A stretch of DNA of 64,000 nucleotides from Planctomycetota bacterium (GTDB taxonomy: Bacteria; Planctomycetota; UBA8108; UBA1146): the NCBI GenBank assembly GCA_036125855.1, contig JAYZTT010000016.1, positions 112,122 through 176,121 of the forward strand, written 5' to 3'. Of the stretch, positions 18,328 to 57,687 are shown one piece after another. The notes beneath the pieces are model-generated. The model ran no database searches. It was given only the letters and a program-made list of their open reading frames with translations, and had not been told where the DNA came from. The position numbers and the translations under genes were made by a program. The stretch's first letter is position 1; the number at the start of each line of letters is the position of its first letter.

Positions 18328-18372
18328 CGTATTCGGTCTCCTGGTCAGTCAGCGCCTAGGCGCAAACATGTA

Positions 18373-19395: not shown

Positions 19396-19399
19396 CGGG

Positions 19400-20263
19400 C
19401 TACCCGCTAAGCTCTCGTTCGGGATCCTCTTCGCGCGAGCCCTCGACATCATCGGAGGCTGGCATCGAAAACGACTCCTTCGGCGAGGGAAACGCTCCAG
19501 AGCTCACGTCGCTACAAAACTGCTTCACCGCATCGCTCAGCAGTTGCTGTGCTTCCGCGTAACGACGAACGAATCGTGGCTGAAAGTCACCAGACAGGCC
19601 GACCAGGTCATGAAACACGAGCACTTGCGCATCCACTGCCGGCCCCGCGCCGATACCCACAACAGGGATCGACACCTTGCCCGTAATCGTCTCCGCCAGG
19701 GAAGCGGGAACACATTCAAGAACAAGGGAAAAGGCTCCCGCCTCCTCCAGCGCAATCGCGTCATCGACAATCTTCTGGGCCGAAGAGGCATCGGTTCCCT
19801 GCACACGATATCCGCCGAGCTGGGTGGCGTTTTGTGGTGTCAACCCTAGATGTCCCATCACCGGGATTCCCGCATCGACTATCTTCCTGACGGTCGATGT
19901 GCGCGGGCCACCACCCTCCAGCTTCACCGCATCGGCACCACCCTCCTGAACCAGCCGACCGGCGTTTCTTACCGCCTCCTCATCGTTCACCTGAACAGAA
20001 AGGAAGGGAAGATCGCCGATAACAAACAGTTCAGGCGCGCCTCGACGAACCGCTGCGACATGATGCACCATATGATCCATCGTGACGGGAATGGTGCTGT
20101 CGTATCCAAGAATGACATTACCAAGAGAATCGCCAACCAGGGCAACAGGAACTCCCGCCGCCGCGAGCACTTTTGCAGTGGGCGCATCGTAGGCGGTCAG
20201 GCACACCCAGGGCTGCCCCTGCTGCTTCCACCGCACCAAATCCTGCAAAGCTATCTTGGCCAT
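19400..20263 (-). CDS. panB: 3-methyl-2-oxobutanoate hydroxymethyltransferase
   Basis: LTAYDAPTAKVL..VALVGDSLGNVILGYDSTIPVTMDHMVHH, KLEGG and VMGHLGLTPQ. Confidence 0.93.
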   Translation of the reverse strand: MAKIALQDLVRWKQQGQPWVCLTAYDAPTAKVLAAAGVPVALVGDSLGNVILGYDSTIPVTMDHMVHHVAAVRRGAPELFVIGDLPFLSVQVNDEEAVRNAGRLVQEGGADAVKLEGGGPRTSTVRKIVDAGIPVMGHLGLTPQNATQLGGYRVQGTDASSAQKIVDDAIALEEAGAFSLVLECVPASLAETITGKVSIPVVGIGAGPAVDAQVLVFHDLVGLSGDFQPRFVRRYAEAQQLLSDAVKQFCSDVSSGAFPSPKESFSMPASDDVEGSREEDPERELSG

Positions 20264-20286
20264 CTTTTGACTTCCACTTCTCGCGA

Positions 20287-23125
<2,839 letters not shown>

Positions 23126-23129
<4 letters not shown>

Positions 23130-24271
23130 GCTTCCTGCATTTCGTTGATAACAAGGGGCATAACGATGTGTCTGTAGGAGTTTTCGTCATCTGGAATTGT
23201 GAAGAGCCCGGCGGTTTTCCCGTCACAGAAACAACACTGAACCTCTGTGGTGCCAACCACTTTTAATAACTCAATCAGATAGCCAGGGTTGAAGTGGATG
23301 ACGAAGTCATCATCCTCTCCTTCCTTCTTCTGGACAGGAAACTCGATGCGTGATTCCCCTATATTGCTCGCTGAGCTGGAGATGGTTGCCTGGTCCGAAC
23401 CGAAAACAAAACGTACAGAATTGGTTTCTTTTGTCGTCATGAGGGCTGCCTGGCGTAACGACACCAGTAGGTCTTCAGTTTTTATGACATAGACGCTTTC
23501 AAACTTTTGTGGGACTGCCCGCTCGTAATCGGGGAATTTCCCCTCAACGAGACGGCAAGTGAGTGACTCCTGGTCAGAGATATAAGTCACCTCGTTTTGA
23601 TCCAGGTGCAACACAACCGTTTCCCCGGCCTCGCTGGAGAGGATCTTCGAGAGTAGCTCAACCCCTTTCAGGGGAACCACAAACTGCCCCTCTGGTAGGC
23701 CGCCTTTGCCGGCAGCCGAGACGGCAAGAGAACTCATCGCCATCCTCTTCCCGTCGGTGCTCACAATCCGCAACTCTTCGCCCTGGCCATCAAAAAGAAC
23801 GCTGTGCATGTTGAAGCGAGTAGCATCTTTTGCCGCAGCAACGCTTACTCTTCTCAGGGTGTTCAGAAGTTCTTCTCTGGAAATCTGGATCGAGGCTCCC
23901 GGTGGAGAAAATTCGACTGTAGGGAATTCATCCAGTGGGCCGGTCGGTAATTTAAAATGCGCGGTCCCGGCGGAGATACATGCCTGCCCCGCTGCATCCA
24001 CTTCATAGGTAACTTCTTGTTCTTTAATCTCTCGCAAGATCGCTACCAGTCTTGCACAGGGAACCAGGCAGGCACCTTCCTGGTCGACCATCACCTCATC
24101 GACTTGAGTTTGAAGTCCCACTTCCAGATCGGTTCCAATAACCTGTAACCCATCGCGGGAAGCCTGTAGTTTTGCCGACTGGAGAACCGGACGGGTTGGA
24201 TTGCTGGGGACAACTCCTGCAACCAGGGAAACCGCTTCAAGAAGCTCGCGGGTGTGGCACTGAAATTTCAT
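23126..24271 (-). CDS. dnaN: DNA polymerase III beta sliding clamp
   Basis: MKFQCHTRELLEAVSLVAGVVPSNPTRPVLQSAKL...VIGTDLEV is a typical DnaN N-terminus, and the length fits three domains. Start at ATG 24271; the ORF is open to TTG 24292. Confidence 0.93.
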
Positions 24272-24292
24272 AAGACCTCTTTTGGTTTGCAA

Positions 24293-24925
24293 AGGTGCCC
24301 CCAGGAAGCTCTAGATGGCCTCTCACGCGGCACCTGGTTTCTGCTCGACGGGTTCTCTGGGTCCGTTCCCAAGAGAGGCTCCAAAAGTCGTCACACGGCC
24401 ACCCTGGAGCCTTGCAAATTTATTCCGGAACTACACTCTTTCCGACTCGCTGTTTCACCTTGAAATAAGCCCTTCAAAGCAACGCGATATTCTAGGTGAC
24501 ACAGGTACTGTGGGCAATCTGAAACGGGCCCAAAAACGGACTCATAAGCAGAAATAAACAAAGGGGTTACGAAGCTTTTTTCGAGCGGACTACCGATCCA
24601 AAAGGGGACCTCTGGAGAAGTAGATGAAAAGAGAATTAGATGAGAATTCTTAGTCTTTCATCATAGGCCCTGGGATAACCGTGGAAAACTTCAGAGTGCC
24701 CCTGTTTAACCCATGAAGCGAGAAGGACTTATAGATGGGAAATTTCAAGAAACGAGAGTGGAAAAAGGGACGGGTACCCGGGGGGTTTCGGTCGGAACGG
24801 GTTGGTTCTCCCCTGGCGGTGAAAAAAGAGCTCTTCAAGCCGTAATAATATCCGCCACGGAGAGACAGAGAATCACACAACCACCGACACCTTATCCACC
24901 ATGTATGAGCAAGCAGTGGCTCTCC
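24293..24925. other. Candidate oriC / DnaA-box-bearing AT-rich spacer upstream of dnaN
   Basis: About 630 bp non-coding. Locally AT-rich stretch around 24541-24665. DnaA-box-like 9-mers TTATCCACC (24892-24900), CGTGGAAAA (24680-24688) and AGTGGAAAA (24757-24765). TAGATGR occurs four times. Confidence 0.3.
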
Positions 24926-25867
24926 TCACAAGCCAGGCGGCGAGTTCTCTGGTAAGCCCTCATGCCACGTTTCATTCCTCACTGGTGCTACGAGCTGGGC
25001 GATCTGGTCGAGCAGCTCCGGGTCGATGGGGAGGTCCAGGACCGCGACGTTTTGTTGAACCTCCTGTGGGCTTTTCATGCCACAGAGGGTTGAGGCGATG
25101 TTGCTGTTGTCGAGAGCGAAACGAAGCGCCACCGAGCTGACAGAAGCGCCGTGTTGCTGGCAAAGCCGAGCGACCTCCTGGCCAATCCGGATGGTTTCTG
25201 TTGATGCTGGATGCCACGGTTGCGGACCGCTTGAGGAGAGGATTCCCATGTGGAGCGGGGAAGCGTTGATGATGCCAACCCCCTGTGCCTGCGCGGTGGG
25301 CACCAGTACTGTCTCCAGGTCGTCCACCATCAAATTGTAATGACAGTAAGAGAGCACGGTATCGACCGGAAATTCTGAAATCAAATCCCTCAACATCTGT
25401 ACCGGAAGCCCGGTAATCCCGACAAACCTTGCCTTGCCTGATTTTTTGATCTGTTCGATGGCGGGGAGGGTTTCCTCGAGAATCTGTTGTCGAGATCCAA
25501 ACTCAACATCGTGGACCTGAAACAGGTCAAGGTGGTCTGTCTGGAGCCTTTTGAGGCTGTCGTCGACGTCGCTCTGAACCCGGGCTGCGCTGAAGTCAAA
25601 GCCGCGGTGGCCGAAGCGACAGCACTTGGTGGCGAGGAACACCTCATCTCTGCGCCCCTTCAGCGCCTTCCCGAGGCGCTCTTCCGCGAGGGTCAGGCCA
25701 TAATAAGGGGCCACATCGACCAGGTTAATTCCAGCATCGATGGCCGCGTTGAGCGTGGCCACCCCTTCTTGTTCGGTGATGTTGCCGTACAGATCGCCGA
25801 GTGGTGCACAGCCAAAACCAAGCACGGATACCTCAACACCCGTGGTACCGAGAGGGCGTTTTTTCAT
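24926..25867 (-). CDS. Aldo/keto reductase
   Basis: MKKRPLGTTGVEVSVLGFGCAPLG, DVAPYYG and VFLATKC form an AKR-family signature. Confidence 0.9.
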   Translation of the reverse strand: MKKRPLGTTGVEVSVLGFGCAPLGDLYGNITEQEGVATLNAAIDAGINLVDVAPYYGLTLAEERLGKALKGRRDEVFLATKCCRFGHRGFDFSAARVQSDVDDSLKRLQTDHLDLFQVHDVEFGSRQQILEETLPAIEQIKKSGKARFVGITGLPVQMLRDLISEFPVDTVLSYCHYNLMVDDLETVLVPTAQAQGVGIINASPLHMGILSSSGPQPWHPASTETIRIGQEVARLCQQHGASVSSVALRFALDNSNIASTLCGMKSPQEVQQNVAVLDLPIDPELLDQIAQLVAPVRNETWHEGLPENSPPGL

Positions 25868-25965
25868 GGTGCTCCCGTCGTCGTTGGTGGGGCGCGCACA
25901 GCCAGGCCTGGCGGGCGTGTGGATATATCGTGGTGACCGAGAGAGCGATTGTCGAGAAAAAACAA

Positions 25966-27315
25966 TCAGCCTTGTCGCAGCTGTCCTTCCATCGCCTCGA
26001 CATTACCGCGCAGCTGGGCATCCTGCTCGACACACTGGCGGATTTTTTCGATGGAGTGGAGGACTGTTGAGTGATCTCGACCACCAAAGTACTGGCCAAT
26101 CTCTCCCAACGAGCAGCCGGTGAGGCGGCGTCCCAGATACATACAAACCTGACGCGGAAGAACAATCGAGCGCGTGCGCCGGGGAGAGTGCAGGTCTTCC
26201 GAGGAAACAGAAAATTCGAGAGAAACAAGCTCTTCGATCTTGCGAAGGTCGATTCTCGAAGACCCTCCACCGAGTAAATCATCCAGCGTCGTGTTTACTG
26301 TCGAGACCGTGATGGGGAGGTTTTCGTGGCGCGCCATGCTTTCAATTCGAAGCACCGCCCCCTCCAGTTCTCGGACGTTATCGTGAATTCTCCTGGCGAC
26401 CACCTCCACCACATCTGGCGGAAGGTCGATCGCCCTGTGGTGTGACTTGGCGTGGACGATGGCCATTCGGGTTTCAAGATCAGGAGGATCCATCTGGACC
26501 ACCAGGCCCAATCTGAAGCGAGAAACAAGCCTTTCGGAGAGTCCCTGGATTTCAGAAGGAGCGGCATCCGAGGTCAGGAAAATCTGGCTTTCCTGATTGT
26601 AGATTTCATTGAAGGTGTGAAAAAATTCTTCCTGGGTTCGCTCCTTGTCACACAGGAACTGGATGTCGTCGATCAGAAGGGCGCCAGCCTTCCGGTACTT
26701 GCTTCTGAATTCATCGATTTGTTTTGTTGAAAGAGCGGCGATGAATTCGTTGGTGAAGGAGGCGCAAGAAAGAGCGACCACGTTTTCTACACCGGAATTT
26801 TGAAGCCGGTGCCCGACCGCTTGAAGCAGGTGGGTTTTTCCAAGCCCCACAGACCCATGCAGAAAGAAGGGGTTGTAAGAACCCCCCGGGTTGTCTGCAA
26901 CAGCCATGGCGGCGGCGTGGGCCAGCTGGTTCGATGGGCCGGTGACAAACTCTTCAAAGGTCAGGCTTTTTTTCAGCGTCGCCTTGCGGCTGCTAACCGT
27001 CGGGATACGAACCTCGGGGCTGGGTGTTTCGATGGGGGCGGGCGGCGAGTTCGCTGTGTGCTTCACCTCAAAAACCAGGCTCGGGGCGGCATTCCCTTCT
27101 GTGAGTTCTTTGATGATCTTTTCGATGATGGCCTGGTACTGGTGCTGGAGATAGGTGGAGTGTAAAGACGAAGGGGATTTCAGCGCGAGGCTTTCTCCGT
27201 TATTGGCCAGCTCCACCTCTTCGAACCATGTCGACCATTGTTCTGATGGAACCCGGTCGCGCAATTCGCTCAAGACTCGCGCAGGGAGGGATTCATCAAA
27301 GGTCGATGAAATCAT
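25966..27315 (-). CDS. dnaA: Chromosomal replication initiator protein DnaA
   Basis: AAA+ Walker A GSVGLGKTHLLQAVGH, LLIDDIQFL, and the C-terminal DNA-binding helix GRDHSTVLHSIEKI. Start set to ATG 27315 because the longer ORF reads through the antisense of tRNA-Ser. Confidence 0.95.
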   Translation of the reverse strand: MISSTFDESLPARVLSELRDRVPSEQWSTWFEEVELANNGESLALKSPSSLHSTYLQHQYQAIIEKIIKELTEGNAAPSLVFEVKHTANSPPAPIETPSPEVRIPTVSSRKATLKKSLTFEEFVTGPSNQLAHAAAMAVADNPGGSYNPFFLHGSVGLGKTHLLQAVGHRLQNSGVENVVALSCASFTNEFIAALSTKQIDEFRSKYRKAGALLIDDIQFLCDKERTQEEFFHTFNEIYNQESQIFLTSDAAPSEIQGLSERLVSRFRLGLVVQMDPPDLETRMAIVHAKSHHRAIDLPPDVVEVVARRIHDNVRELEGAVLRIESMARHENLPITVSTVNTTLDDLLGGGSSRIDLRKIEELVSLEFSVSSEDLHSPRRTRSIVLPRQVCMYLGRRLTGCSLGEIGQYFGGRDHSTVLHSIEKIRQCVEQDAQLRGNVEAMEGQLRQG

Positions 27316-27491
27316 GAAAGCCTTTCGGGATGGTAAGTAGCTGAGTGCCCGAGGTGATTCAGGAGGGTAACGAGACGAGTACCACATCCGCAAGGGGCTC
27401 TTACTTACCTTGTCGGGCTTGCCGAGTCGTGGAGTGGCGGCTAGCATTGTCGATCCTTCCGGGAGACTGGACCACACCTGAAAAGGGTCAC

Positions 27492-27583
<92 letters not shown>

Positions 27584-46644: not shown

Positions 46645-47151
46645 CTATTCCTGAGCGGCGAATTGCCCCCTGGGGCGAGGAAAAAAGATCAGCAACGTGA
46701 TGAGAAGTAACGAGATACCGCTCTCGAAGACAACCTGGAGCCTTTGAATAGTAGAGATGGCCCACCAACCGTGGGGATCAAGTACCGCCCACCGGTGTAC
46801 ATGAATGCCGATGTGCATCATGAGCATGATGATGACCGGTACGGTGACGCCAGTGATTCCGCACCAGAGCTGCAACGCCAGCGAGAAGCAGAAGATCCCC
46901 AGCAACCCATCGATCAGGGCTGCCTGCCAGCCAAAGCCAGGCTCCTGGAAAAAGAGTGCATCCAGGATCCAGAAGATGCCGCGGACAGACAGCCAGCTCA
47001 CAACCAGAACAATCACAAAGCTAGGGCTGCTGCGAGCAGTATTGGCCGGATTATTCAATCGGGGCTGGCTCCATTTCGTATCACTCCCAACAGTGGATTT
47101 GTCACAGTATGCTAAGGGGGAGAGGACAGGAAAGCTCTTCTCTTTCACCAA
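46645..47151 (-). CDS. Hypothetical small membrane protein (about 4 TM; start uncertain)
   Basis: The ORF has clear hydrophobic helices (FVIVLVVSWLSV, LLGIFCFSLALQLW, VPVIIMLMMHIGI, ISLLLITLLIFF). Confidence 0.4.
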   Translation of the reverse strand: MVKEKSFPVLSPLAYCDKSTVGSDTKWSQPRLNNPANTARSSPSFVIVLVVSWLSVRGIFWILDALFFQEPGFGWQAALIDGLLGIFCFSLALQLWCGITGVTVPVIIMLMMHIGIHVHRWAVLDPHGWWAISTIQRLQVVFESGISLLLITLLIFFPRPRGQFAAQE

Positions 47152-47168
47152 TCTGCGGAGAGGAAGTT

Positions 47169-48065
47169 GTGATCAACAAGGCCATTGTTGCACTTCTACC
47201 ACTGGTACCAAAATCTGTCGTGTGGAAAGTGTCCCGCAAGTACATCGCGGGAACAACCCTTGACGAGGCACTCGATTGTGTCGAGCGACTGAACCGAGAA
47301 GGGATGCGCGCGACACTGGATGTCCTGGGTGAAGATTCTGTGAACGAACAGGAGGCGCTCGGGGGAGAAAAGATATACCAGGAAGCGTTGAGAGCTATCG
47401 ACGAACGATCTCTCGATGCAAATATCTCGGTGAAACTATCGATGCTGGGGTTGCGTTTTGATCCGGCATTATGCGAATCAATTGTCAGAAGATTGGTCCA
47501 GACCGCAGACCTCCACGACAATTTTGTTCGAATGGATATGGAAGATTCGAGTGTGACTCTCCTCACTCTCGATCTATATCGAAAACTGCGCTCAGAAACT
47601 GATCGGATCGGCGCCGTGGTCCAGGCTTATTTGCGAAATACGGTCTCGGATGTTCAGGATCTTCTGGCACAAGGCGAAACCAATCTGCGCATTTGCAAAG
47701 GCATCTACATCGAACCAGAGGAGCTGGCGTACCAGGATTTTGAAGAGGTACAAGAATCCTTCAAGGAAACACTGCATTGTCTTCTTGAAGGAGGTGCCAC
47801 CAGGGTCGGGATCGCAACCCACGATGCAGAACTGGTTGAAGCAGCTTTATCGGCGATCCGCGAGCTGGCGGTGCCGAAGGAGCGCTACGAATTCCAGATG
47901 TTGCTAGGTGTGACCGAAAAGATGCGCGGCGAACTGGTGGCCGATGGACATCCTCTTCGCGTTTATGTTCCTTTTGGTAAGGAGTGGTACGCCTACTCAA
48001 GCCGCAGGTTGAGAGAAAATCCAAAAATCGCCGGCCACGTGGTGCGTAACTTGTTGCCGTTCTAG
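47169..48065 (+). CDS. Proline dehydrogenase (monofunctional PutA-like)
   Basis: Family pattern: VSRKYIAGTTLDEAL, ISVKLSMLG, VRMDMEDS, LRICKGIY and YSSRRLRENP. GTG 47169 is preceded by GGAGAGGAAG; the alternative ATG 47109 lacks an SD. Confidence 0.8.
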   Translation: MINKAIVALLPLVPKSVVWKVSRKYIAGTTLDEALDCVERLNREGMRATLDVLGEDSVNEQEALGGEKIYQEALRAIDERSLDANISVKLSMLGLRFDPALCESIVRRLVQTADLHDNFVRMDMEDSSVTLLTLDLYRKLRSETDRIGAVVQAYLRNTVSDVQDLLAQGETNLRICKGIYIEPEELAYQDFEEVQESFKETLHCLLEGGATRVGIATHDAELVEAALSAIRELAVPKERYEFQMLLGVTEKMRGELVADGHPLRVYVPFGKEWYAYSSRRLRENPKIAGHVVRNLLPF

Positions 48066-48083
48066 CATGCAAAAGAGGTATTT

Positions 48084-48689
48084 TTGAAAAGCTCTTGCTG
48101 GTGGAGTTCGGACAGTTCGGCCCTGGTTAAGATAGAAGAGCTGTCCCACGCCGTGAAGCTTCTGGAGGACTACCAGCCTGCCAACGAATTTCAGTCGGCG
48201 GAGAAAAACAAAATTCTATCCTTTTGCCAGGAACACCCGGATGCGCTGTATCGATCATGCCTGCTCGGTCATCTCACAGCTTCTGCAGTGGTGACCGATC
48301 CAGCAAGAGAAAGATTCCTGCTCCATCATCATGCCAAGCTGGATCTGTGGCTTCAATTTGGCGGACATTGCGATGGCGATGGGAATTTACCTCATGTTGC
48401 ATGGAGAGAAGCCGTTGAAGAAAGCGGAATTTCTGACCTTGCGATAGATCCCGAGATTGTCGATCTCGATGTTCACAAGATTCCGAAATGGAAAGATGTG
48501 CCAGAACATCTCCATCTTGATGTGCGATTTCTTGCTGAGGTGCCAGCAGCAAGCGTTCCTGTTGCTGGTGATGAATCCCTGGCCATCGGATGGTATTCAC
48601 TGACCGATGTGGCGAACATCAACACCGATGATTCTGTTCAACGGTTGGTCAGGCTGGCAGCCAATTGTGGAGGACAAGGTGAGCTATAA
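48084..48689 (+). CDS. NUDIX hydrolase
   Basis: Nudix-box-like GGHCDGDGNLPHVAWREAVEESGI. Start uncertain. Confidence 0.7.
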   Translation: MKSSCWWSSDSSALVKIEELSHAVKLLEDYQPANEFQSAEKNKILSFCQEHPDALYRSCLLGHLTASAVVTDPARERFLLHHHAKLDLWLQFGGHCDGDGNLPHVAWREAVEESGISDLAIDPEIVDLDVHKIPKWKDVPEHLHLDVRFLAEVPAASVPVAGDESLAIGWYSLTDVANINTDDSVQRLVRLAANCGGQGEL

Positions 48690-49140
48690 TTTCGACGGCA
48701 AGACCGGCACCCTGATCGTTCGGATCATATTGTTCAATTGCGCGTTATTTGTCTTGCTGGGCGGGATCGGTGCGGCGTTTTTTCTGCAACCAGATGAAAA
48801 TTCCTCCGGGACAGGGCTGGACTATTTAGAAGTGGTCACGGCTATTTTCAGCCCAATCGCGCTTGTTTCGGTCATTGTTGGCAAGGGCTATCTGGCTCGT
48901 TCCATGGAGTCTCGAAGTGGTGAATCGAAGGTACAGGTTTTTGTAGGTGGTACGGTGACTCTCATGGCCATTTGTGAGGCTCCCGGATTGCTTTGGGCAC
49001 TTTGTGCTTATCTAGCGAGCCAACCGTATTATGCAATCGGTTCGCTGGTTCACGCCCTCGCGATTCTGGTGTTGTGGCCGGATGGTTCCGAACTGGAAGA
49101 AGAGTTTGGTACAATGGCTTCAGAAGGAGTCGAAGAATGA
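48679..49140 (+). CDS. Hypothetical membrane protein (about 4 TM)
   Basis: GTG 48679 is preceded by GGAGGA. Hydrophobic helices are present, and the stop forms an ATGA overlap with the peroxiredoxin start. Confidence 0.5.
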   Translation: MSYNFDGKTGTLIVRIILFNCALFVLLGGIGAAFFLQPDENSSGTGLDYLEVVTAIFSPIALVSVIVGKGYLARSMESRSGESKVQVFVGGTVTLMAICEAPGLLWALCAYLASQPYYAIGSLVHALAILVLWPDGSELEEEFGTMASEGVEE

Positions 49141-49700
49141 TTCAGAACAGATCTTCAAGGGTAATAACGGTATTGGGAGGAGTCCTGGCCATCGGAATTT
49201 TAAGCAACCTGTTCACAATGGGTTCTTCGGCGGTACAGCCGCTCAAGATTGGCGATGTGGTGCCGGATCTGGTGTTGCCGGGTTCCGATGGGGAGAGCCA
49301 CTCATTGCGCAAAATTGTCGCTGACGGAGAAGGTCTGGTGATTGCCTGGATTCCAAGGACAGGAACGCCTGGCTGAACTACTGAATGTAAATCGCTGCGT
49401 GACAGCGCCGAGGAGATAGCAAAGTATCGGGTCAGAATGTTCGTGATTTCTTGTGACTCTGTCGAGAAGAGCAAGAAGTTTGCAGAAAAATTACAGCTAC
49501 CGTTTGCAGTGCTTTCAGATTCCGAGAGAAAGGCAGCCAAGGTCTTTGGTGTTGACCGGGCTTTGGGCCTGTCAAAACGCCACACCTTCTATTTTGGACC
49601 GGAAGGAAAACTGCGTTTCATTGATAAGGCTGTCGAGGTGGCCCAACACGGTTCTTCGGTAGCCGAGAAATTGAAGGAGCACCGCATCCCTCTGCGGTAA
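49137..49700 (+). CDS. bcp: Membrane-anchored Bcp-type peroxiredoxin with in-frame TGA (49374-49376) at the peroxidatic Cys position; probable selenoprotein
   Basis: Track ORFs 48993..49376 and 49437..49700 share one frame. The joined read is ...LVIAWIPRTGTPG-TGA-TTECKSLRD...LPFAVLSDSERKAAKVFGV..., which parallels the Bcp active site TPGCTxxxC. A hairpin lies downstream of the TGA. Confidence 0.75.
49393..49407 (+). promoter_or_regulatory. SECIS-like hairpin downstream of the peroxiredoxin UGA
   Basis: CGCTG-CGTGA-CAGCG: a 5-bp stem with loop CGUGA. The stem starts 16 nt after the UGA. Confidence 0.45.
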
Positions 49701-49744
49701 TTTCGTCTGCTGTAGATACCGACTGACGTGTGCTGGCAGCCAGT

Positions 49745-50200
49745 TCATCTGGCTGTTCCTGCTCCTGACTCGAGTTTTTCCTTGAGGCTGTCCAGTTCCT
49801 TTTGTAGGGCATCACAGTTAGATTTTTTCATCGCCCATCCAATTAAAAAGAAGATGACCTTGGCAAATCCCTTCGGGTAAACCGTTGCCGTCTCTGTGAC
49901 CCGCGTGTTGCCATCTCCCAGATCTTCGAATTCGTATAAAGCATCGATGTCGAAGGCTTTGCTGATGAGGTGGACTTCGTTCAGCCGATCTGTTTCGTAT
50001 CGAGTGACTACCCCAGTCATCTCCATCTTGCGACCCCGCTCTTCTGTCATGATTCGAAACGTGGTTCCGACCTTTTCCGGAGTCTCCTCGAGAACTTCAT
50101 CCTCGATCACCGTGATACTCCAATCGCTGACATTTTCGGTGGTGTAACGAAAAACCTCGGAAATCGGTCGCATAATTTCGACGCTAGTATTTGTGTTCAT
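49745..50200 (-). CDS. SRPBCC-superfamily (polyketide cyclase/START-like) protein
   Basis: The 151-aa product from ATG 50200 (MNTNTSVEIMRPISEVFRYTTENVSDW...) has the typical SRPBCC N-terminal pattern. The longer ORF extension lacks protein-like character. Confidence 0.6.
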   Translation of the reverse strand: MNTNTSVEIMRPISEVFRYTTENVSDWSITVIEDEVLEETPEKVGTTFRIMTEERGRKMEMTGVVTRYETDRLNEVHLISKAFDIDALYEFEDLGDGNTRVTETATVYPKGFAKVIFFLIGWAMKKSNCDALQKELDSLKEKLESGAGTAR

Positions 50201-50623
50201 GTCCGGGCCTTTCCTATCGTTGAATCTAATTTTGTCTTCAGGCGTGAATTGTTCGAATCTCTCGTAACGTCGAAGATCCTTGTTTCCATCGCTTCTAAAC
50301 CACTGAGAGTGATTCACAATGCTGAATGCAATTAAGACATAAATAGTTAACCTTTCAGCACTTGGTAGGTTTTTACCCGAAGTGTCGGGACTGTTCGACC
50401 CCTTGGCCGGAATGGCCTTATTTGTTATTGCCAGGTCAGTGGGCCGTGGCCAGGAACTGCCCATGGTTAAACAACAAAGTCTCTTTTGATTCTCGATGGG
50501 TTTGCTAATAGGTCATTCACCAATTGCTTCAAGACGAGTATCGTCAGTGGCAATGGGTCTGAGTTGTGAACCGGAGAATTTGCCTTCGTCGGTTATATGA
50601 AATGATAACTGCGTCAATCGCAT

Positions 50624-52717
50624 ATGGATTGGTTAGTAGATATGGGTATGAACAGAAGAGAGCTGCTTCGGGGTGCTTTAGCTGCGGGCGCGATCGGGGC
50701 AACCAGTCCTTTCCTTGGAAATAAAAAACTCCAGGCTGGAATGTTTGGTTACGAATCGTTTACTCAGCCATTGTTCAGGCCGCCGGTGATCGGTAAGACT
50801 GAATCCCTGAACCCAGCGCCAGGTAGTGATGATGCAATCGTCGGTTCCGATGCGATTTATCACGGGATTGCTCCTGAGTATTACCCCGACCATCCAGCAC
50901 ATCTCGAAGACTGGGATCGATTCCCGGAAATCTATTGGGAAATGGATTCCGTGGAAACACATTGGCAGTTCTTTCCAGGGATTGACACTCCGGTATTCGC
51001 CTACAAGGGGAAGGAGGGGACTGCATCGGTGACCCCACCGAGTTTCCCTGGTCCGACCTTCATAGCAAGAAATGGAGAGCCTGCAGTTCTCCGGTTCCAC
51101 AACAAGACATCGGTTGAGAATTCGATTCATTTACACGGTGATCACGGTCCAGCACACTCTGACGGTCACCCTGATTTTTATGTGCTGCAGGATAAGGTCA
51201 GGGATTATTACTATCCGAACATTGGCCCGCGCCACAATGTTACAGCCGATGTTCCATTTCCCGAGACCCCGGAAGAAGCGGGACCATTTGAGGAAGGTCA
51301 CATACCAACAACGATGTGGTATCACGATCATGCGATGGACGTGACTGGCTTCAACGTGAATCGAGGCCTGGCTGGATTCTATCTGTGTGAGGATGATCTA
51401 GAAATCGAACACCAGGAAAGCGGTTTCCTTCCGAAGCTTTATGGCAACTTTGACCACGTGATTGCCTTGAAGGATTTCCAGTTCAATAGCGATGGAACTC
51501 TTCAGTATGATCTTCTTGATCACAATGGCCATATCGGCGATGTGAAAACAGTTAATGGCCGTGCTCAGCCGTACATGGATGTTTATCGTCGAAAGTATCG
51601 CTTCCGTTTCCTTAACGCATGCAATGCACGCTATCTCCATCTTCGGCTCAACAGCAGGACCGGAAGAAGACAGAGGGATGGAATACCCTTCCTGATGATC
51701 GGCAAGGACACCTGGGAAATCCCAGAGGCCACGGAAATGGACAGCTTTACCATCTGTCCAGGCGAACGCTTCGACATGATCATTGATTTCAGCGAGCTAC
51801 CCGAGGACGTTGACACTTACTACCTGCAGAACGTGATGCATCAAACTGATGGCCGTAAACCCAAGGGCATTCGTCCCAAAAAAGAGCATACCCCCTGGCT
51901 TCAATTCCGTATTTTGGAGGGTGACCCACCTGGACCACAGGAGATCGAAGGTGTTGAAAACGGTGTCTACTCGGTATCGGCAGGAGACCATGTCAGGGAG
52001 TTCACTCCTTACCTCGAAGAAGAAGTGGTTCAGACACGAATATTTAAATTCCATCGCCGTAACGGAGCTTGGCAGGTCAATGATAAGTACTTCAGCCCAC
52101 GCCGAACCGACGCGACCCCGCTGCTGAATAGCTGTGAGCGCTGGATCTTCGAAAATGGCGGCGGAGGATGGTGGCATCCGATCCATATGCATCTGGAAGC
52201 TCTTCAGGTGCAGAAGTGGGATGGAATGACCAAGGATGATCCAGATTTCCCGGTTGGATACAGGTGGAATACCGACCTCGTGAACCTTGAAGGGGGAACC
52301 GAGGTTGAATGCCTGGTCAAGTTCCGCACCTTTAAGGGACCATTTGTTTGCCATTGTCACATCATTGAACATGAAGATATGAGAATGATGTTTACCCACG
52401 ATCCGCGCGAGGCAGGCGAAGCGGGCATGAATGACGGAATCAGAAACCACGCCTGGAACGAAGAAAGTAAGTTGCAGTCTGGAATGCCGACCGGTTGTAT
52501 CGATCCCCACCATCTGTTGTTCGATCACGAACAAACGCTGGCCAGCGGTGAAGTGGTTGGCCCCGGCGATGTTCCGCAACTTGATCATGAAGGAGTCGGA
52601 TTCCCCGGTGATTTCCATGATGATATCTGCGAGGTCGACGGTGGAGACTGGGATGCGGAAGGGAATCAGGATACTCCGGATGATCCGATCCCAGAGGAAC
52701 AAGAAGATCGGCGCTAA
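50624..52717 (+). CDS. Tat-exported multicopper oxidase
   Basis: Twin-arginine signal MNRRELLRGALAAGAIGA. The four copper-ligand motifs are IHLHGDH, WYHDHAM, WWHPIHMHLE and HCHIIEHEDMRMM. Confidence 0.88.
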   Translation: MDWLVDMGMNRRELLRGALAAGAIGATSPFLGNKKLQAGMFGYESFTQPLFRPPVIGKTESLNPAPGSDDAIVGSDAIYHGIAPEYYPDHPAHLEDWDRFPEIYWEMDSVETHWQFFPGIDTPVFAYKGKEGTASVTPPSFPGPTFIARNGEPAVLRFHNKTSVENSIHLHGDHGPAHSDGHPDFYVLQDKVRDYYYPNIGPRHNVTADVPFPETPEEAGPFEEGHIPTTMWYHDHAMDVTGFNVNRGLAGFYLCEDDLEIEHQESGFLPKLYGNFDHVIALKDFQFNSDGTLQYDLLDHNGHIGDVKTVNGRAQPYMDVYRRKYRFRFLNACNARYLHLRLNSRTGRRQRDGIPFLMIGKDTWEIPEATEMDSFTICPGERFDMIIDFSELPEDVDTYYLQNVMHQTDGRKPKGIRPKKEHTPWLQFRILEGDPPGPQEIEGVENGVYSVSAGDHVREFTPYLEEEVVQTRIFKFHRRNGAWQVNDKYFSPRRTDATPLLNSCERWIFENGGGGWWHPIHMHLEALQVQKWDGMTKDDPDFPVGYRWNTDLVNLEGGTEVECLVKFRTFKGPFVCHCHIIEHEDMRMMFTHDPREAGEAGMNDGIRNHAWNEESKLQSGMPTGCIDPHHLLFDHEQTLASGEVVGPGDVPQLDHEGVGFPGDFHDDICEVDGGDWDAEGNQDTPDDPIPEEQEDRR

Positions 52718-53411
52718 ATTGCGGAGTTTACTGCTGCTGCTGATCCTGATAGCAAATTTGTTTGGATGTAATTTACCAGACAGAGCAGATCTTTCTCCGG
52801 CAACCATCGAGCAATCGCTCGATGTGTTGTCGGAGGAAATTCCTTTTATCGACAAAGCTGCACGAGCCAAACCACATCCCGGTGCACGAGGTCGTTACTC
52901 TGATAAATTCCCCGACACGGTGCTGACCGATCATCTGGGCCGAAAACACCGCTTCTATAGTGATCTGGTGAAAGATCGAATAGTCGCCATCCAGTTTTTC
53001 TACACGACCTGTAGCGGTATATGACCAGGTGTAACAGAGAACCTCGTGAAGGTTCATGAAATGTTCGGAGAGCGCCTTGGCAAGGACATGGTTTTTCTTT
53101 CCATCTCCATCGATCCAGAACAAGACACCCCGAAGGCATTGAAGGAATACCGCAGCTACGGTGATGAGAACTGGAACGGTTGGCTACACTTGACGGGTGA
53201 TTACGATGAAATTGAAACCCTACGGTGGGTTCTGGGGGTCTACGACATGGATCCAGTTCTTGATTCTGACAAAACGGAACACGCTGGCATTCTTACCTTT
53301 GGTAACGATAAGACGAACTGGTGGGCGGCGGTGCCAGCCTTGATCGACCCGAAACAGGTTGCCGACGCAATGATTCGCATTGTCGGGAATCCTAGGATGC
53401 AACCTCGTTGA
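52680..53411 (+). CDS. SCO1/SenC-like thioredoxin-fold lipoprotein with in-frame TGA (53022-53024) in the CxxxC motif (CxxxU); probable selenoprotein
   Basis: Track ORFs 52431..53024 and 53046..53411 share one frame. The joined read is ...IVAIQFFYTTCSGI-TGA-PGVTENL...VFLSISIDPEQDTPKALKEY...WLHLTG...TEHAGILTF, which parallels SCO F-T-x-C-x-x-x-C-P, SxDPxxDTP and the distal His. Lipobox LLLLLILIANLFGC. Start is ATG 52680 or TTG 52719. Confidence 0.7.
53039..53055 (+). promoter_or_regulatory. SECIS-like hairpin downstream of the SCO-like UGA
   Basis: GAACCT-CGTGA-AGGTTC: a perfect 6-bp stem with loop CGUGA. The stem starts 14 nt after the UGA. Confidence 0.5.
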
Positions 53412-53417
53412 GGTGCT

Positions 53418-54332
53418 TCACCGAAGGAGTTTGATCGCTTCGGAGGCGGCCCTCCTGAGTACAGGATTGGCATCATCCATGGATATGCCGATCAGCGCTT
53501 CAATGGCCGGCGCGGTGCCGTTACGAGCGAGAGCTCGAACCACATCCAATCTCTGGGAAGAACCTGCCCAGGGTAAGATATCCATCAGCAGTAAAGCCGA
53601 TTCCTCAACCGGGATATGACCCAGGGCGAGAATGATCTCGCGATTGCGAAATGACGTCCCTTGCCAGTTCTCGATGCGGTTCTGGTAATACGGTAGCCAC
53701 CCGGCAACCACCTCAGGATTTCGTCCTTCGTGAAACCCTAGAATCATCGGGGCGGCTTCTCCCTCAAACAATTCGATGCGGAGATCCGATAGCAATTCTC
53801 CGGGTTGGTTTAATTGAGCAACGTGTGCCAGGTATTCGAGCAGTGCAATTTCGTTATCTGCGTATTCGCGCATCAAATTGCCACTATAAAAATCGGGTGC
53901 TTTCCATAGTGGAGAATCCAGATTTCCACCATGAAATGCGTCTGCGAATATTTCGTAAAGTCGATCTACCTGTTCGAAGTGGCCGGCGGCGATCAGGTCG
54001 AAAGCGAGCTGCCAGATTGCTTCGAAGTTCTGCTGGTCAATCGCTGCTTCCAGGCTTTGGTCTGCTGCACCGGTGGACACGCCGGATCGTTCTCTTGGCA
54101 TTGTGTCCAGGATGGCAGGTGGAGATGTTGTGTCTGGTGTATTCGATTCTGACCAGGGTTCAGGTGGGTCTGTCTCGGTTTGAGGTGGTTTCTCTCCAGA
54201 GTTTTTACCTGGGGTCGTGGCCTCACCATTGTTGGATGGATGGGATGGCGTTGATTTTCCGACTTCGATGAACCGGCCGACCAAGATTCCGAGCAAGAGC
54301 GCAACAATTGCTATGACGAGATGAGTTTTCAC
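53418..54332 (-). CDS. Membrane-anchored HEAT-repeat protein
   Basis: N-terminal TM helix HLVIAIVALLLGILVG and a Pro/Thr-rich linker. The C-terminal HEAT/PBS-lyase-like repeats read VVRALARNGTAPAIEALIGISMDDANPVLRRAASEAIKLL. Confidence 0.6.
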   Translation of the reverse strand: MKTHLVIAIVALLLGILVGRFIEVGKSTPSHPSNNGEATTPGKNSGEKPPQTETDPPEPWSESNTPDTTSPPAILDTMPRERSGVSTGAADQSLEAAIDQQNFEAIWQLAFDLIAAGHFEQVDRLYEIFADAFHGGNLDSPLWKAPDFYSGNLMREYADNEIALLEYLAHVAQLNQPGELLSDLRIELFEGEAAPMILGFHEGRNPEVVAGWLPYYQNRIENWQGTSFRNREIILALGHIPVEESALLLMDILPWAGSSQRLDVVRALARNGTAPAIEALIGISMDDANPVLRRAASEAIKLLR

Positions 54333-54354
54333 AGATCACCTTTCGGTCACCATA

Positions 54355-56574
54355 TCAATCCTGGTCGATGGGTGGGGGCTGTTGTTTTTCTTGTTTTCGA
54401 GTGTGTGTCGCCAGCTCCATGCGGATGTAGAAAACGGCGGCCAGAAGGAGCCCTCCCAGAGACACCAGCAATAACATGACCTCGATGGGAATCAGGTTGT
54501 GGTGTTGAACGAGGCGAACAGATAATGCTATTCCTGCCATTGCGGAGATCATGAAACGTGGTCTCCAGGATCGAGCTGTGAGTGTGATGAACATCGCTAC
54601 AGCTGCAATGAACGGCCCAATCGCGACCCAGATACTACTACTGGTTTGCCAGCCAGCGATGGGGTTACTGGATAATGCTGCCTGGTAGAGGCCACCCAGA
54701 ATAAATACGGGACAAACCCATTCGAGGTAGTTTGCGATTCTGCGACGCTCCAGGCGAATGCTGTTTTCCAGGAAGTAGGTGATCAACAGTAGCATCAGTC
54801 CGGAGATTGCAAGAGACCAGCCCGTGGCAGCTTGTGGCTCCATGGCATCGATGCCGATCCAGCTCAGCAATGGTACTTGCGATAGCTTGTAGAGGCCGAT
54901 CAAAAGGGTCAAGCCGCCTAGCCAGTGGAAGGGTCGAGCGAAACGGGGCTTCTGCATCTTTTCGAATCCGGTTCCGACCATCCAGGCGATGGTAATCGAC
55001 AGGATCCCCAGCGCTTGAGCGCCAGCCTCCCAGGTCAGGTATCCTGCCACCAGCAACAATGAGAAATGAGTGGATCCATACAGGGTTGCGGCAACCCATG
55101 AGTAGAAAGAAACACCGGTTCGATTCAAGCGCAGTACGGCAGCGATGAGACTGACCAGGCTAGAAAAGAACAGTGTTCGGTTTGCAATTCCTGCCTCCCC
55201 AAACAGCTCCGCTTGATCATCCGGTGCTGGAGCCCAGACCATGGCAGTGAGAAGGGCAATGAGTGTGGGGACCAGCGAAATGATCGCCCCCCCGAAGAAT
55301 AGAGGCGTCACTCTTTTTCTGGCAAATTGCTGAGAGAGAAGTCCCGCCACTCCCAGGGCAACCGAAGTTCCCATGGGTAGGAGCCAGCTGAAAGAAACTC
55401 CGACATCTTGACGGTAGAGAAGAGCAGTAAAAAAAGAGGAGACCAGGGAAGTCCAGATACATATGTAAATTCCCAGCTCTCCGACTCGCAATTTTCGAGT
55501 CTCGGTCGGCCAGAGGTCGTCTCCCTCAAGTACCCTTCGGTAGCGCCAGCGAAGCTGATCCCGTTCGCGCTGGTCAACAAGGCCAAGATCTTTCCACTTT
55601 TCGATGGTTCCGACATGTTCTTCAACTCGATTGAGCAAATGGTCTGTGACAACAGAGCTTCTCATTTGAATTGGCTGGCCTGCGAGGAAATTTACGAGAG
55701 CCTGATGCACTTCATCGGCATTGGGACGGTGCTCAGGCTTGAAAGCGAGGCAAGAGAGGCAGATTCGTTCCAGGTCTTCCGGTATCGCCGGTCGGAGAGC
55801 TCTCGGGATTGATGGCTCCCCCGCGAGGATCGAGGACATGGTGGGAGGCTTTCCCAGTTTCGCAAAAGGATGACGTCCGGTCAGTGCTTCGTGAAATAAA
55901 ACTCCGAGAGAAAAGATGTCGGAGGCAGGAGTGGCCATCTGGCCCTGGAGTCTTTCGGGAGCGGCATAGGCTACGGTCCCGGAAAAACCTTCTTCGATGT
56001 TTTCGCTGTTCATTTCGATAGAAAGACCGAAATCCAGAATTCGCACTTCGTGACCGGGGGTAACAACAACATTCTGGGGCTTGAGATCTCTATGTAGGAT
56101 TCCCGCATGATGGGCAACCGAGATGGCGCGCGCAGCTTCGGATACGATTTTTGCAACCTGTTTGGGTTCCAGAACTGATGACACGTTTTGCAATTCGTGA
56201 CCGTCTACCAGTTCCATGACGATGGCCGCACTACCCTGATGTTCGATGACTCCGAAGATGGTTACTATGCATCGGTCTCCCAGGGCTGCTGCCCGACGCG
56301 CTTCCTCGATCACTTTTTGCCGCTGATCGTGGCTAGCTTCTGTTGAGGTCAGGACCTTGATGGCAACGGGTCGATTGAGAGTGAGATCACGGCCTCGGTA
56401 GACAACCCCGAGTCCTCCACGGCCCAGCTCTCCCTCGATGGCATAACCAGGGAATTCGGGGACGGACGAGTCTCCGAATCGGTCCGACGAAGATTTCGGG
56501 TCTATTTCTGGCTTGTATTCGACCGTCTCATCGTGATTGGGAGGTGGCATTTCGTCTCCACTCGAGCTGAACAT
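54355..56574 (-). CDS. Ser/Thr protein kinase fused to a large polytopic membrane domain
   Basis: The Hanks kinase motifs are GRGGLGVVY, VAIKV, HRDLKPQNVV, DFGLS and APE. About 400 aa with many predicted TM helices follow. ATG 56574 is preceded by GGAGG. Confidence 0.88.
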   Translation of the reverse strand: MFSSSGDEMPPPNHDETVEYKPEIDPKSSSDRFGDSSVPEFPGYAIEGELGRGGLGVVYRGRDLTLNRPVAIKVLTSTEASHDQRQKVIEEARRAAALGDRCIVTIFGVIEHQGSAAIVMELVDGHELQNVSSVLEPKQVAKIVSEAARAISVAHHAGILHRDLKPQNVVVTPGHEVRILDFGLSIEMNSENIEEGFSGTVAYAAPERLQGQMATPASDIFSLGVLFHEALTGRHPFAKLGKPPTMSSILAGEPSIPRALRPAIPEDLERICLSCLAFKPEHRPNADEVHQALVNFLAGQPIQMRSSVVTDHLLNRVEEHVGTIEKWKDLGLVDQRERDQLRWRYRRVLEGDDLWPTETRKLRVGELGIYICIWTSLVSSFFTALLYRQDVGVSFSWLLPMGTSVALGVAGLLSQQFARKRVTPLFFGGAIISLVPTLIALLTAMVWAPAPDDQAELFGEAGIANRTLFFSSLVSLIAAVLRLNRTGVSFYSWVAATLYGSTHFSLLLVAGYLTWEAGAQALGILSITIAWMVGTGFEKMQKPRFARPFHWLGGLTLLIGLYKLSQVPLLSWIGIDAMEPQAATGWSLAISGLMLLLITYFLENSIRLERRRIANYLEWVCPVFILGGLYQAALSSNPIAGWQTSSSIWVAIGPFIAAVAMFITLTARSWRPRFMISAMAGIALSVRLVQHHNLIPIEVMLLLVSLGGLLLAAVFYIRMELATHTRKQEKQQPPPIDQD

Positions 56575-56718
56575 CGGTATACCTCCGGGCCTGGGCCAGA
56601 TGATGCCATCCAGAAGGCGCCAAATCTTGAACTCCTTGAACGGAAATTGCCCACCAGCTGACGGATTTCGGCAATAACCCAATATATGGTGTCACCGTGT
56701 CGGCAGAATCCGAGGCAA

Positions 56719-57687
56719 TTAGATCACTTGCGGAAGTACCCACAAAAAGGAACAGCCGAGAAACCCGATCAGTGGGCCATCTGCTGTATGTGGACTGATG
56801 GCTTCTGCCACGGTCAGAAGTGCGGGAAGCAACAGTAACGCAACCAACAATTGCGGCATTGTAAAAGACGCCGAATACCAGATGAGTACAGCGACGGAAA
56901 CCAGAAATACCATTGCGCTGCCTTCGAGACTACGATGGTATTCACCGTTCCAGAACTTCCCGTCATGCCAAATCGCCTTTGTTTTGTACCGATGCTTTCC
57001 GAAACGAAGGCCCACTGGTTCTGCCAGCCCATCCCCGAATTCGTTCACCAGTTGCGGGATCAGTGTGACGATCTTGTTGTCTACCAGTGCGATGAAGGGG
57101 ATGTAGATCAAGAAACGAAGGACATCCTCAATCATGTCATAACGCATGCTGTATGGACGGTCTTCGAGGCGATCCCATGAAACAAACGCAAAACGGAAGA
57201 TAGGAACATGTCTGCGAATGACATTCCATTCGGTGATGATGGTCTTCAGCTGTCCTAGTGAAAATAGAAACATCGTATCGATGACGATTTTATCGCCGGA
57301 GACGAAGAAGAAGGGGATAATAAACGCTTGCAGTTTTCTCCAGGGTCGCAGACCTAGCTTGCGGACGAAATTGATTCGGATGTTGTAACGCAAAACGAGA
57401 TGGGCGCAGATGATCTTTCCGATCAGTTCGAATACGGAAGCTGCGATGAAAAAGATGAATGCCGGAAAACTCAGGGTCGGTATCCAGCCCTCGGAGGATG
57501 CCAGCAGCATTCCTGCGGCAAGCAGGAGATAGGCGCTACCGGCTATGGCGACAAAACGATTTTCGCCGATCCAGTCATAATGGGGGTTTTTGAGGCCATA
57601 TGGGTCTTCATGGAGCACTCGGAAGTACTCATCGAGGTCGTCATGAATCGCCATTGGCCGATTTTTATTGCTGTCCGATTTTGTCAT
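56719..57687 (-). CDS. CTP_transf_1-family membrane protein (dolichol/phytol kinase or CdsA-like)
   Basis: Polytopic protein with the motif NEFGDGLAEPVGLRFGKHRY...RSLEGSAMVF, matching the GDG.A..VG..FGK...K/RS.EGS signature of polyprenol kinases and cytidylyltransferases. Confidence 0.6.
   Translation of the reverse strand: MTKSDSNKNRPMAIHDDLDEYFRVLHEDPYGLKNPHYDWIGENRFVAIAGSAYLLLAAGMLLASSEGWIPTLSFPAFIFFIAASVFELIGKIICAHLVLRYNIRINFVRKLGLRPWRKLQAFIIPFFFVSGDKIVIDTMFLFSLGQLKTIITEWNVIRRHVPIFRFAFVSWDRLEDRPYSMRYDMIEDVLRFLIYIPFIALVDNKIVTLIPQLVNEFGDGLAEPVGLRFGKHRYKTKAIWHDGKFWNGEYHRSLEGSAMVFLVSVAVLIWYSASFTMPQLLVALLLLPALLTVAEAISPHTADGPLIGFLGCSFLWVLPQVI

Follow-up and report, generated by a model that had tools for sequence, protein, structure and literature searches.

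In Pseudomonas putida GB-1, a SCO1/SenC gene lies beside a multicopper oxidase (MCO) gene in the mcoA and mnxG operons, and its product has been read as the copper chaperone of the oxidase (PMC11409713); in Iodidimonas, the SCO genes ioxB/D/F accompany the MCO gene ioxA and have been read in the same way (bioRxiv 10.1101/2023.03.02.530844). Here we describe a SCO1/SenC-family gene beside an MCO gene in a Planctomycetota bacterium (GenBank assembly GCA_036125855.1, contig JAYZTT010000016.1, positions 112,122 to 176,121), within a stretch of 64,000 nucleotides (nt) that was analyzed as a whole and is termed the window herein; all coordinates are those of the window. The codon for the second cysteine of the SCO CxxxC motif is a UGA in this gene, and we consider it highly probable that the gene encodes a selenocysteine (Sec)-containing member of the SCO1/SenC family. 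The features by which a bacterial selenoprotein can be predicted from sequence are all present, namely, a UGA at a Cys column, conservation of this UGA, and a conserved stem-loop downstream from it.

An in-frame UGA at the second cysteine position of a SCO1/SenC-family gene

The gene and the elements within it are as follows.

52680..53411, plus strand: predicted SCO1/SenC-family selenoprotein gene, from the translation, a Pfam PF02630 match across the TGA, and a profile match to solved SCO structures
52680..52769, plus strand: signal peptide with lipobox L-F-G-C, read from the sequence
53010..53012, plus strand: codon for Cys111, the first residue of C-x3-U, at a column that shows no variation in A2 and A4 (alignments) and corresponds to the first CxxxCP cysteine of BsSCO and 4hde
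53022..53024, plus strand: UGA codon, residue 115 (predicted Sec), at the second position of the SCO CxxxC motif, where TGA alternates with TGC/TGT
53039..53055, plus strand: hairpin resembling a selenocysteine insertion sequence (SECIS), with a 6-bp stem GAACCU/AGGUUC and the loop CGUGA (53045-53049), from comparative pairing and RNAalifold
53280..53282, plus strand: codon for His201, predicted third copper ligand, invariant in A2 and A4 and aligned with the DH(T/S) His of ScoI

Translation of 52680-53411 gives 243 codons with a single internal stop, TGA 53022-53024, which stands in the context FFYTTC-SGI-(TGA)-PGVTENLVKVHE; an AGGA sits 8 nt ahead of the ATG (52680), and the gene ends at an ordinary TGA stop (53409-53411). 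The predicted product is a pre-lipoprotein of 243 amino acids with C111, U115, and H201. Its N terminus, MIRSQRNKKIGAKLRSLLLLLILIANLFGC, is a basic and hydrophobic signal peptide closing in the lipobox LFGC, with Cys30 (codon 52767-52769) as the predicted lipidation residue. Lipoboxes are present too in six homologues (L001, P0013, P0063, P0066, P0070, and P0103), and lspA, encoding signal peptidase II, lies in the window at 1814-2419. An earlier note, made from the letters of this DNA without database searches, had joined the open reading frames (ORFs) 52431..53024 and 53046..53411 across the TGA, and in the sequence they indeed occupy one frame and are split by this codon only. The note had further recognized SCO signatures, a TGA-encoded second Cys of the CxxxC pair, and an N-terminal lipobox, and these claims held as well: the Pfam match spans the TGA, the alignment to solved SCO structures places the TGA on the second Cys of the motif, the proposed copper-ligand His aligns with H201, and the lipobox is present as LFGC with Cys30.

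Family membership was assessed with U written as C for Pfam scoring. SCO1-SenC (PF02630) matched residues 91-193, crossing the TGA at residue 115, with 66.3 bits (cutoff, 22.8; E = 3.5e-18), and no NCBIfam model matched at an E value of ≤0.01. Compared with solved structures, the SCO-family profile matched SCO proteins only, which were BsSCO/YpmQ (1xzo and 1on4), the Bacillus anthracis SCO lipoprotein (4hde), Bradyrhizobium japonicum ScoI (4wbr/4wbj), Thermus Sco1, and human SCO1/SCO2. In the profile alignments, C111 and U115 of the motif C111-S-G-I-U115-P fall on the CxxxCP of 1xzo and 4hde, and both ligand columns are invariant Cys among the Cys homologues. H201, 86 residues from U115, aligns with the copper-ligating DH(T) histidine of ScoI (4wbr/4wbj) and is invariant across Sec and Cys forms in A2 and A4. 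The fold was modeled with AlphaFold on a Cys homologue (P0001, 57% identical to the window protein) from an alignment of 42 sequences, giving a mean predicted local distance difference test score (pLDDT) of 85.8 and a predicted template modeling score (pTM) of 0.79. The top 26 fold matches of the model in the PDB were all of the SCO type (24 named SCO chains and the related Aquifex aq_2194), with target-normalized template modeling (TM) scores of 0.60 to 0.78. Judged by sequence, the window protein has every SCO feature that can be examined in this way, and its sole difference is the predicted Sec as the second motif residue.

Homologous loci were collected by a protein search, and 160 more were added by scanning metagenome contigs and one genome for each species. 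The protein search returned many full-length C-x3-C homologues, together with short proteins that start just past the motif (P0049, P0107, and P0114). On the contigs of these three, an in-frame upstream half precedes the annotated protein, separated from it by a TGA alone (TTCTGI*PGTT, TRCTGI*PGTI, and TTCSGI*PGVT). Altogether, a stop at the exact column of the second Cys was found in 26 loci including the window (the others being L001-3, L005-14, L017, L019, L054, L056, L060, L068, L084-86, L092, L098, and L120), and in all 26 it is TGA, with TAA and TAG absent; a Cys codon stands there in at least 118 homologous copies (TGC in 74 and TGT in 44), so that Cys and TGA alternate at exactly this column. 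The carriers of the TGA include marine Planctomycetota-type metagenome-assembled genomes (MAGs), whose loci are syntenic with the window and whose SCO orthologues are 60 to 73% identical, Fuerstiella, Gimesia, and Pirellulaceae MAGs, and two MAGs of the Thermoanaerobaculia (Acidobacteriota); further carriers come from metagenomes. A rough neighbor-joining tree placed the TGA forms in at least four clades, with Cys forms interleaved among them. The half downstream from the TGA is always present and in frame in the orthologues, and conservation in the alignment is highest there.

These data bear on the view that the locus is a pseudogene, a product of assembly or sequencing error, or two genes, one for a truncated N-terminal lipoprotein and one for an independent C-terminal ORF. 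Public gene callers do break the gene, and P0049, P0107, and P0114 are such C-terminal fragments. Against this, the TGA recurs at the same codon in the 26 loci, which were assembled independently and represent at least two phyla, and neither another stop nor a frameshift takes its place; both halves are in frame and conserved, half a thioredoxin fold would be left without the His ligand, and the second half has no conserved start or ribosome-binding site. TGA is also the commonest ordinary stop in the window, where it terminates 21 of 40 genes including the SCO gene, and we rejected a reassignment of the code on this ground. Because TGA is the only stop at this column, recurrently, and the conserved downstream half stays in frame under an unchanged code, the pseudogene, error, and split-gene explanations are untenable in our judgment, with next to no probability left to them.

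A few contigs were set apart or carry doubtful labels. P0090/L004 appeared to be a close relative and was dropped, as its contig is chimeric or miscalled upstream from the SISIDP motif; L004 (ERZ23488728) is a short contig that fuses unrelated sequence to a SCO C-terminal half. In L003 (ENA ERZ1749156 NODE_26788, coverage of about 1), the 5' half is a near-copy of the window Sec-SCO gene including the TGA and the hairpin, and the 3' half equals the C terminus of the Cys form P0025/P0033; it was treated as a probable chimeric low-coverage assembly. The labels or the binning look doubtful for L010 ("Verrucomicrobiaceae TMED86") and L014 ("Proteobacteria bacterium"), and the Cys form L018 ("Nitrosopumilus") is likewise suspect.

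The hairpin past the UGA and a peroxiredoxin gene with the same loop

A perfect 6-bp hairpin had been claimed in the earlier note at 53039-53055, and it is there as GAACCU-CGUGA-AGGUUC. It is 17 nt long and starts 14 nt past the UGA; its loop starts 20 nt past the UGA, with G at the second loop position. All Sec forms can pair a 6-bp helix at columns 18-23/29-34 counted from the UGA, and RNAalifold run on the Sec forms predicted this helix and no other. The minimum-free-energy fold of the region as a single sequence favored another, unconserved pairing (z = −1.8), and the 6-bp hairpin was singled out by the comparative analysis alone. The helix is complete in 23 of 23 Sec forms under a strict filter and in three Fuerstiella-type forms in addition, compared to 3 of 118 Cys forms (Fisher test, 1.7e-23, a statistic that ignores phylogenetic relatedness). 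The recurrence of TGA and hairpin at this column in the 25 other loci goes far beyond what chance would give.

The hairpin codons encode NLVKV in Sec forms and in some Cys forms, and the two can be compared for the same peptide. The identical 17-mer GAACCTCGTGAAGGTTC is found in 21 of 22 NLVKV-type Sec forms, whereas the 25 Cys forms encoding NLVKV use 18 different 17-mers, none of them fully paired, with the second Val mostly as GTG or GTC. Identity at third codon positions, calculated for 17 distinct Sec-form sequences, is 0.93 in the five hairpin codons versus 0.38 in fifteen flanking codons, and for the Pro and Gly directly after the UGA all four codons are used among the Sec forms. The same 17-nt element is retained in Planctomycetota, Thermoanaerobaculia, and unbinned marine lineages. 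One stem pair shows a compensatory change from A-U to G-C (L060 and L068), and three stem pairs show one-sided changes via G-U that keep the pairing. The Cys forms that encode NLVKV thus break the pairing through synonymous codons. Selection on the hairpin acts at the nucleotide level and is confined to the forms with a UGA, as expected for a bacterial SECIS.

Three of the loci, from Fuerstiella, Pirellulaceae, and Gimesia MAGs (L056, L060, and L068), form a divergent Sec-SCO clade with the motif C-N-G-I-U-P/R-P. At an equal distance from the UGA, their hairpin has a different sequence, GGGCCUG-GUU-CAGGUCC. Cultured members exist in these genera.

A second UGA of this kind lies 3.6 kb upstream from the SCO gene.

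49137-49700, plus strand: gene for a secreted AhpC/TSA peroxiredoxin whose catalytic Cys position is encoded by TGA; Pfam match across the stop, E = 1.9e-27

The peroxiredoxin, which the earlier note had named as a first selenoprotein, proved to be real, and its hairpin carries the same loop. Its TGA (49374-49376) stands at the PxxxTxxU position, in WIPRTGTPG-U-TTE, and the hairpin CGCUG-CGUGA-CAGCG follows at 49393-49407, with the loop starting 21 nt past the UGA. The TGA is kept in eight syntenic relatives; TGA and hairpin are conserved in L005-L013, with compensatory stem variants (GCACUG/CAGUGC), and on Logan contig L165 the gene was called as two ORFs broken at the TGA. The CGUGA pentaloop is thus common to both hairpins. 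A search of both strands of the window for CGUGA loops closed by at least five Watson-Crick pairs found exactly two sites, those of the SCO and peroxiredoxin genes (mean in shuffled sequences, 0.125), and in 954 kb of collected loci, 23 of 31 CGUGA-loop hairpins sit 20 to 21 nt past a TGA. A PxxxTxxU Sec-peroxiredoxin is an already known type of selenoprotein, and the two Cys-site UGAs with a common hairpin design argue strongly, at the level of sequence, for a working Sec decoding in this genome.

The multicopper oxidase neighbor, the decoding of the UGA, and the role of the protein

The gene directly upstream from the SCO gene is the following.

50624..52717, plus strand: MCO gene, encoding 697 amino acids with the twin-arginine signal MNRRELL; Pfam Cu-oxidase_2/_3

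By sequence, the oxidase matches bilirubin oxidase, CotA, and CueO in the PDB, and the start of the SCO gene overlaps its 3' end by 38 nt. Among the 107 SCO homologues with enough flanking sequence, 99 have an MCO C-terminal domain ending at most 1.3 kb upstream on the same strand, and this holds for both forms (14 of 15 Sec forms and 85 of 92 Cys forms). The pairs span Planctomycetota, Myxococcota, Nitrospira, Acidobacteriota, Methylococcales, Betaproteobacteria, and Photobacterium, and several Cys homologues are fused to CusF-like copper-binding or cytochrome c domains. The MCO is probably the client of the SCO protein, encoded in one operon with it.

Past its Cu-oxidase domains, the MCO ends in a long acidic tail of ~110 residues (52380-52717) that contains many His, Asp, and Glu residues and two Cys (..GCIDPHHLLFDHEQ..DFHDDICEVDGGDWD..). 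The stretch encoding this tail overlaps the SCO start, and the tail may bind metal or dock the chaperone. In some loci, two SCO paralogues lie within about 3 to 6 kb, flanking or following the MCO gene (L025, L028, L029, and L032 from Nitrospira, L040 and L043 from Pirellula, and L055 and L082 from Pyrinomonadaceae), and resemble in this the mnxG and iox operons, which hold two or three SCO genes. In marine Planctomycetota-type MAGs, the gene order ProDH, NUDIX, Sec-peroxiredoxin, MCO, Sec-SCO, HEAT-repeat (minus strand), and Ser/Thr kinase (minus strand) is conserved; the block corresponds to 47109-57000 of the window and to loci L005-L014, with an SRPBCC gene (minus strand, between the peroxiredoxin and MCO genes) in the window only.

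In the mechanism that we propose, SelB with Sec-tRNA(Sec) would bind the hairpin of a ribosome positioned at the UGA, so that Sec would be inserted and the full-length pre-lipoprotein of 243 residues made. Export and lipidation at Cys30 would leave the thioredoxin-fold domain facing the periplasm, where Cys111, Sec115, and His201 would form the SCO metal site. The protein would then bind copper and either deliver it to the MCO, which is predicted to be exported by the twin-arginine translocation (Tat) pathway, or keep the copper-site residues of the MCO reduced. Selenolates have a lower pKa than thiolates and, as ligands, are softer and exchange faster; selenylsulfides, in turn, are rereduced more readily than disulfides. 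Because of these properties, Sec would be expected from general selenium chemistry to keep the metal site competent in the oxidizing periplasm, with better metal exchange and protection from irreversible oxidation.

Several points weigh against a Sec-containing copper chaperone. Selenium incorporation and copper binding are both predictions, made from sequence and gene context. Few covariation events are seen in the stem, since the hairpin is nearly invariant. Rfam covariance models gave no relevant match to the hairpin at the gathering threshold or at an E value of ≤10, and a permissive Rfam search around both TGAs returned noise matches only. No tRNA-Sec was found in the window with ARAGORN and Rfam, which identified tRNA-Ser(GCU) and tRNA-Gly only, and SelA, SelB, and SelD were absent among the about 50 window ORFs scanned with Pfam. 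Most bacterial selenoproteins are redox catalysts and not metal carriers. Finally, we found no published demonstration of a SCO protein metallating an MCO, and the link between the two is one of gene neighborhood.

The lack of Sec machinery within the 64 kb would also fit a UGA that is read through as a standard amino acid (Trp or Cys), with the hairpin acting as a read-through stimulator or pause site. We regard this as very unlikely, as the UGA takes the place of a Cys at a metal/redox site, which is typical of Sec/Cys pairs, the geometry of the stem-loop is that of a bacterial SECIS, with a G among the first two loop positions and the loop 20 nt past the UGA, and the same genome holds the second Cys-site UGA with the same loop; moreover, full Sec-insertion gene sets, as well as Sec-peroxiredoxins, have been documented in several Planctomycetes (PMC4807772). 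In view of the sequence evidence as a whole, the gene is very likely a genuine Sec-encoding member of the SCO family.

As the main alternative, a true selenoprotein could act chiefly as a thiol:disulfide oxidoreductase or peroxidase and not as a copper carrier, reducing or guarding cysteines on a partner in the periplasm; Thermus Sco1 plays such a part for the CuA cysteines. Redox enzymes with a thioredoxin fold and a CxxU or UxxC motif make up the majority of catalogued bacterial selenoproteins (PMC13188914), the fold matches of the P0001 model that come next after the SCO proteins are peroxiredoxins and ResA/TlpA-type reductases, and a Sec-peroxiredoxin gene is only 3.6 kb away. However, the copper-ligand His is invariant in Sec and Cys forms, the pairing with a copper enzyme is near universal, and the CusF-domain fusions among the homologues point to copper trafficking. 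We consider a mainly redox role possible but rather unlikely; SCO proteins can combine copper and redox roles, and one does not rule out the other. A role as a copper chaperone for the neighboring oxidase, predicted from the His and the gene context, is favored because of the invariant His and the MCO pairing, and we judge it reasonably probable.

Elsewhere in the window, the neighborhood of a replication origin occupies the minus strand at 15877-27582, with dnaA (25966-27582), dnaN (23126-24292), gyrB (20287-22719), and gyrA (15877-18327), and further housekeeping genes are present. The longest dnaA ORF overlaps at its 5' end with the tRNA-Ser(GCU) gene (27492-27581), which makes it probable that the true dnaA start is located further downstream.

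Comparison with described selenoproteins and SCO systems

Literature searches for a Sec-containing SCO protein found none. The latest inventory of prokaryotic selenoproteins, of May 2026, with 119 families and subfamilies, has no SCO/SenC, PF02630, or CxxxU entry (PMC13188914), and Sec-SCO is unmentioned in the main text of the Global Ocean Sampling (GOS) selenoproteome papers, deep-Sep, BSepDB, and earlier reviews. The gene described here would add a prokaryotic selenoprotein family that was overlooked by current inventories and by the NCBI selenoprotein models and is split into two ORFs by automated annotation. Related Sec and Cys forms of the chaperone beside the same client oxidase offer a natural experiment on the effect of a selenolate on copper affinity, exchange rate, and oxidation resistance, and the locus ties selenium use to copper use in marine Planctomycetota. 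A TGA followed after 14 to 16 nt by a stem that closes a CGUGA loop may serve as a search key for further selenoproteins in these lineages. A bolder reading, to which we give slightly less than even odds, is that this is the first selenoprotein metallochaperone for a cuproenzyme (with Cys-S, Sec-Se, and His-N as ligands), that Sec is ancestral in the MCO-associated SCO clade, with Cys forms arising repeatedly, and that CGUGA is a lineage-specific SelB code; if this is true, the pentaloop could be used to mine more selenoproteins.

Bacterial selenoproteins offer three points of comparison. The thioredoxin-fold selenoproteins (Sec-peroxiredoxins with TxxU, and SelW-like and AhpD-like proteins with CxxU) likewise have Sec in place of a redox- or metal-site Cys, occur as Sec/Cys pairs, and have the SECIS in the coding region just past the UGA, but the window motif is C-x3-U and the family PF02630, neither of which is in the 119-family table (PMC13188914). 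Predicted Sec proteins that handle metals, such as a cation-transporting P-type ATPase (UxxC), a CopZ-family protein, the SO_0444 Cu/Zn efflux transporter (UxC), and a MerT-like protein, share with the window protein a Sec at a soft-metal-binding Cys (PMC13188914, Table 1); they differ in having other folds and roles in transport or detoxification, and none is a periplasmic assembly factor for a cuproenzyme. The SECIS of the Escherichia coli fdhF type, in its minimal form an upper stem-loop of 17 nt located 11 nt past the UGA, resembles the window hairpin as a short stem-loop inside the ORF that follows the UGA at a fixed short distance and carries G/U in its apical loop. The window hairpin differs from it in the spacing of 14 nt, the perfect 6-bp stem without a bulged U, and the CGUGA loop.

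With the mcoA, mnxG, and iox systems, the locus shares the SCO gene adjoining an MCO gene, in the order MCO then SCO in 99 of 107 loci here; the SCO proteins of those systems are described as ordinary Cys proteins, and the likeness considered here is one of gene pairing. The SCO1/SenC chaperones of known structure (1xzo, 4hde, 4wbr, and human SCO1, 1wp0/2ggt) have the same thioredoxin-like fold, CxxxC-P position, and S-x-D-P-x-x-D-T-P motif, carry the ligand His 86 residues past the second ligand of the CxxxC motif, and face the periplasm from a membrane or lipid anchor. In the window gene, unlike in these, the second Cys is a UGA (predicted Sec), the C-terminal third (LTGDYDEI, GVYD.DP..D.DK..H.G..TFGND) marks a distinct subfamily, and the partner is a multicopper oxidase and not a cytochrome oxidase. 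The Sec-SCO protein would represent a known chaperone family in a new, Sec-containing form, with decoding of the standard kind.

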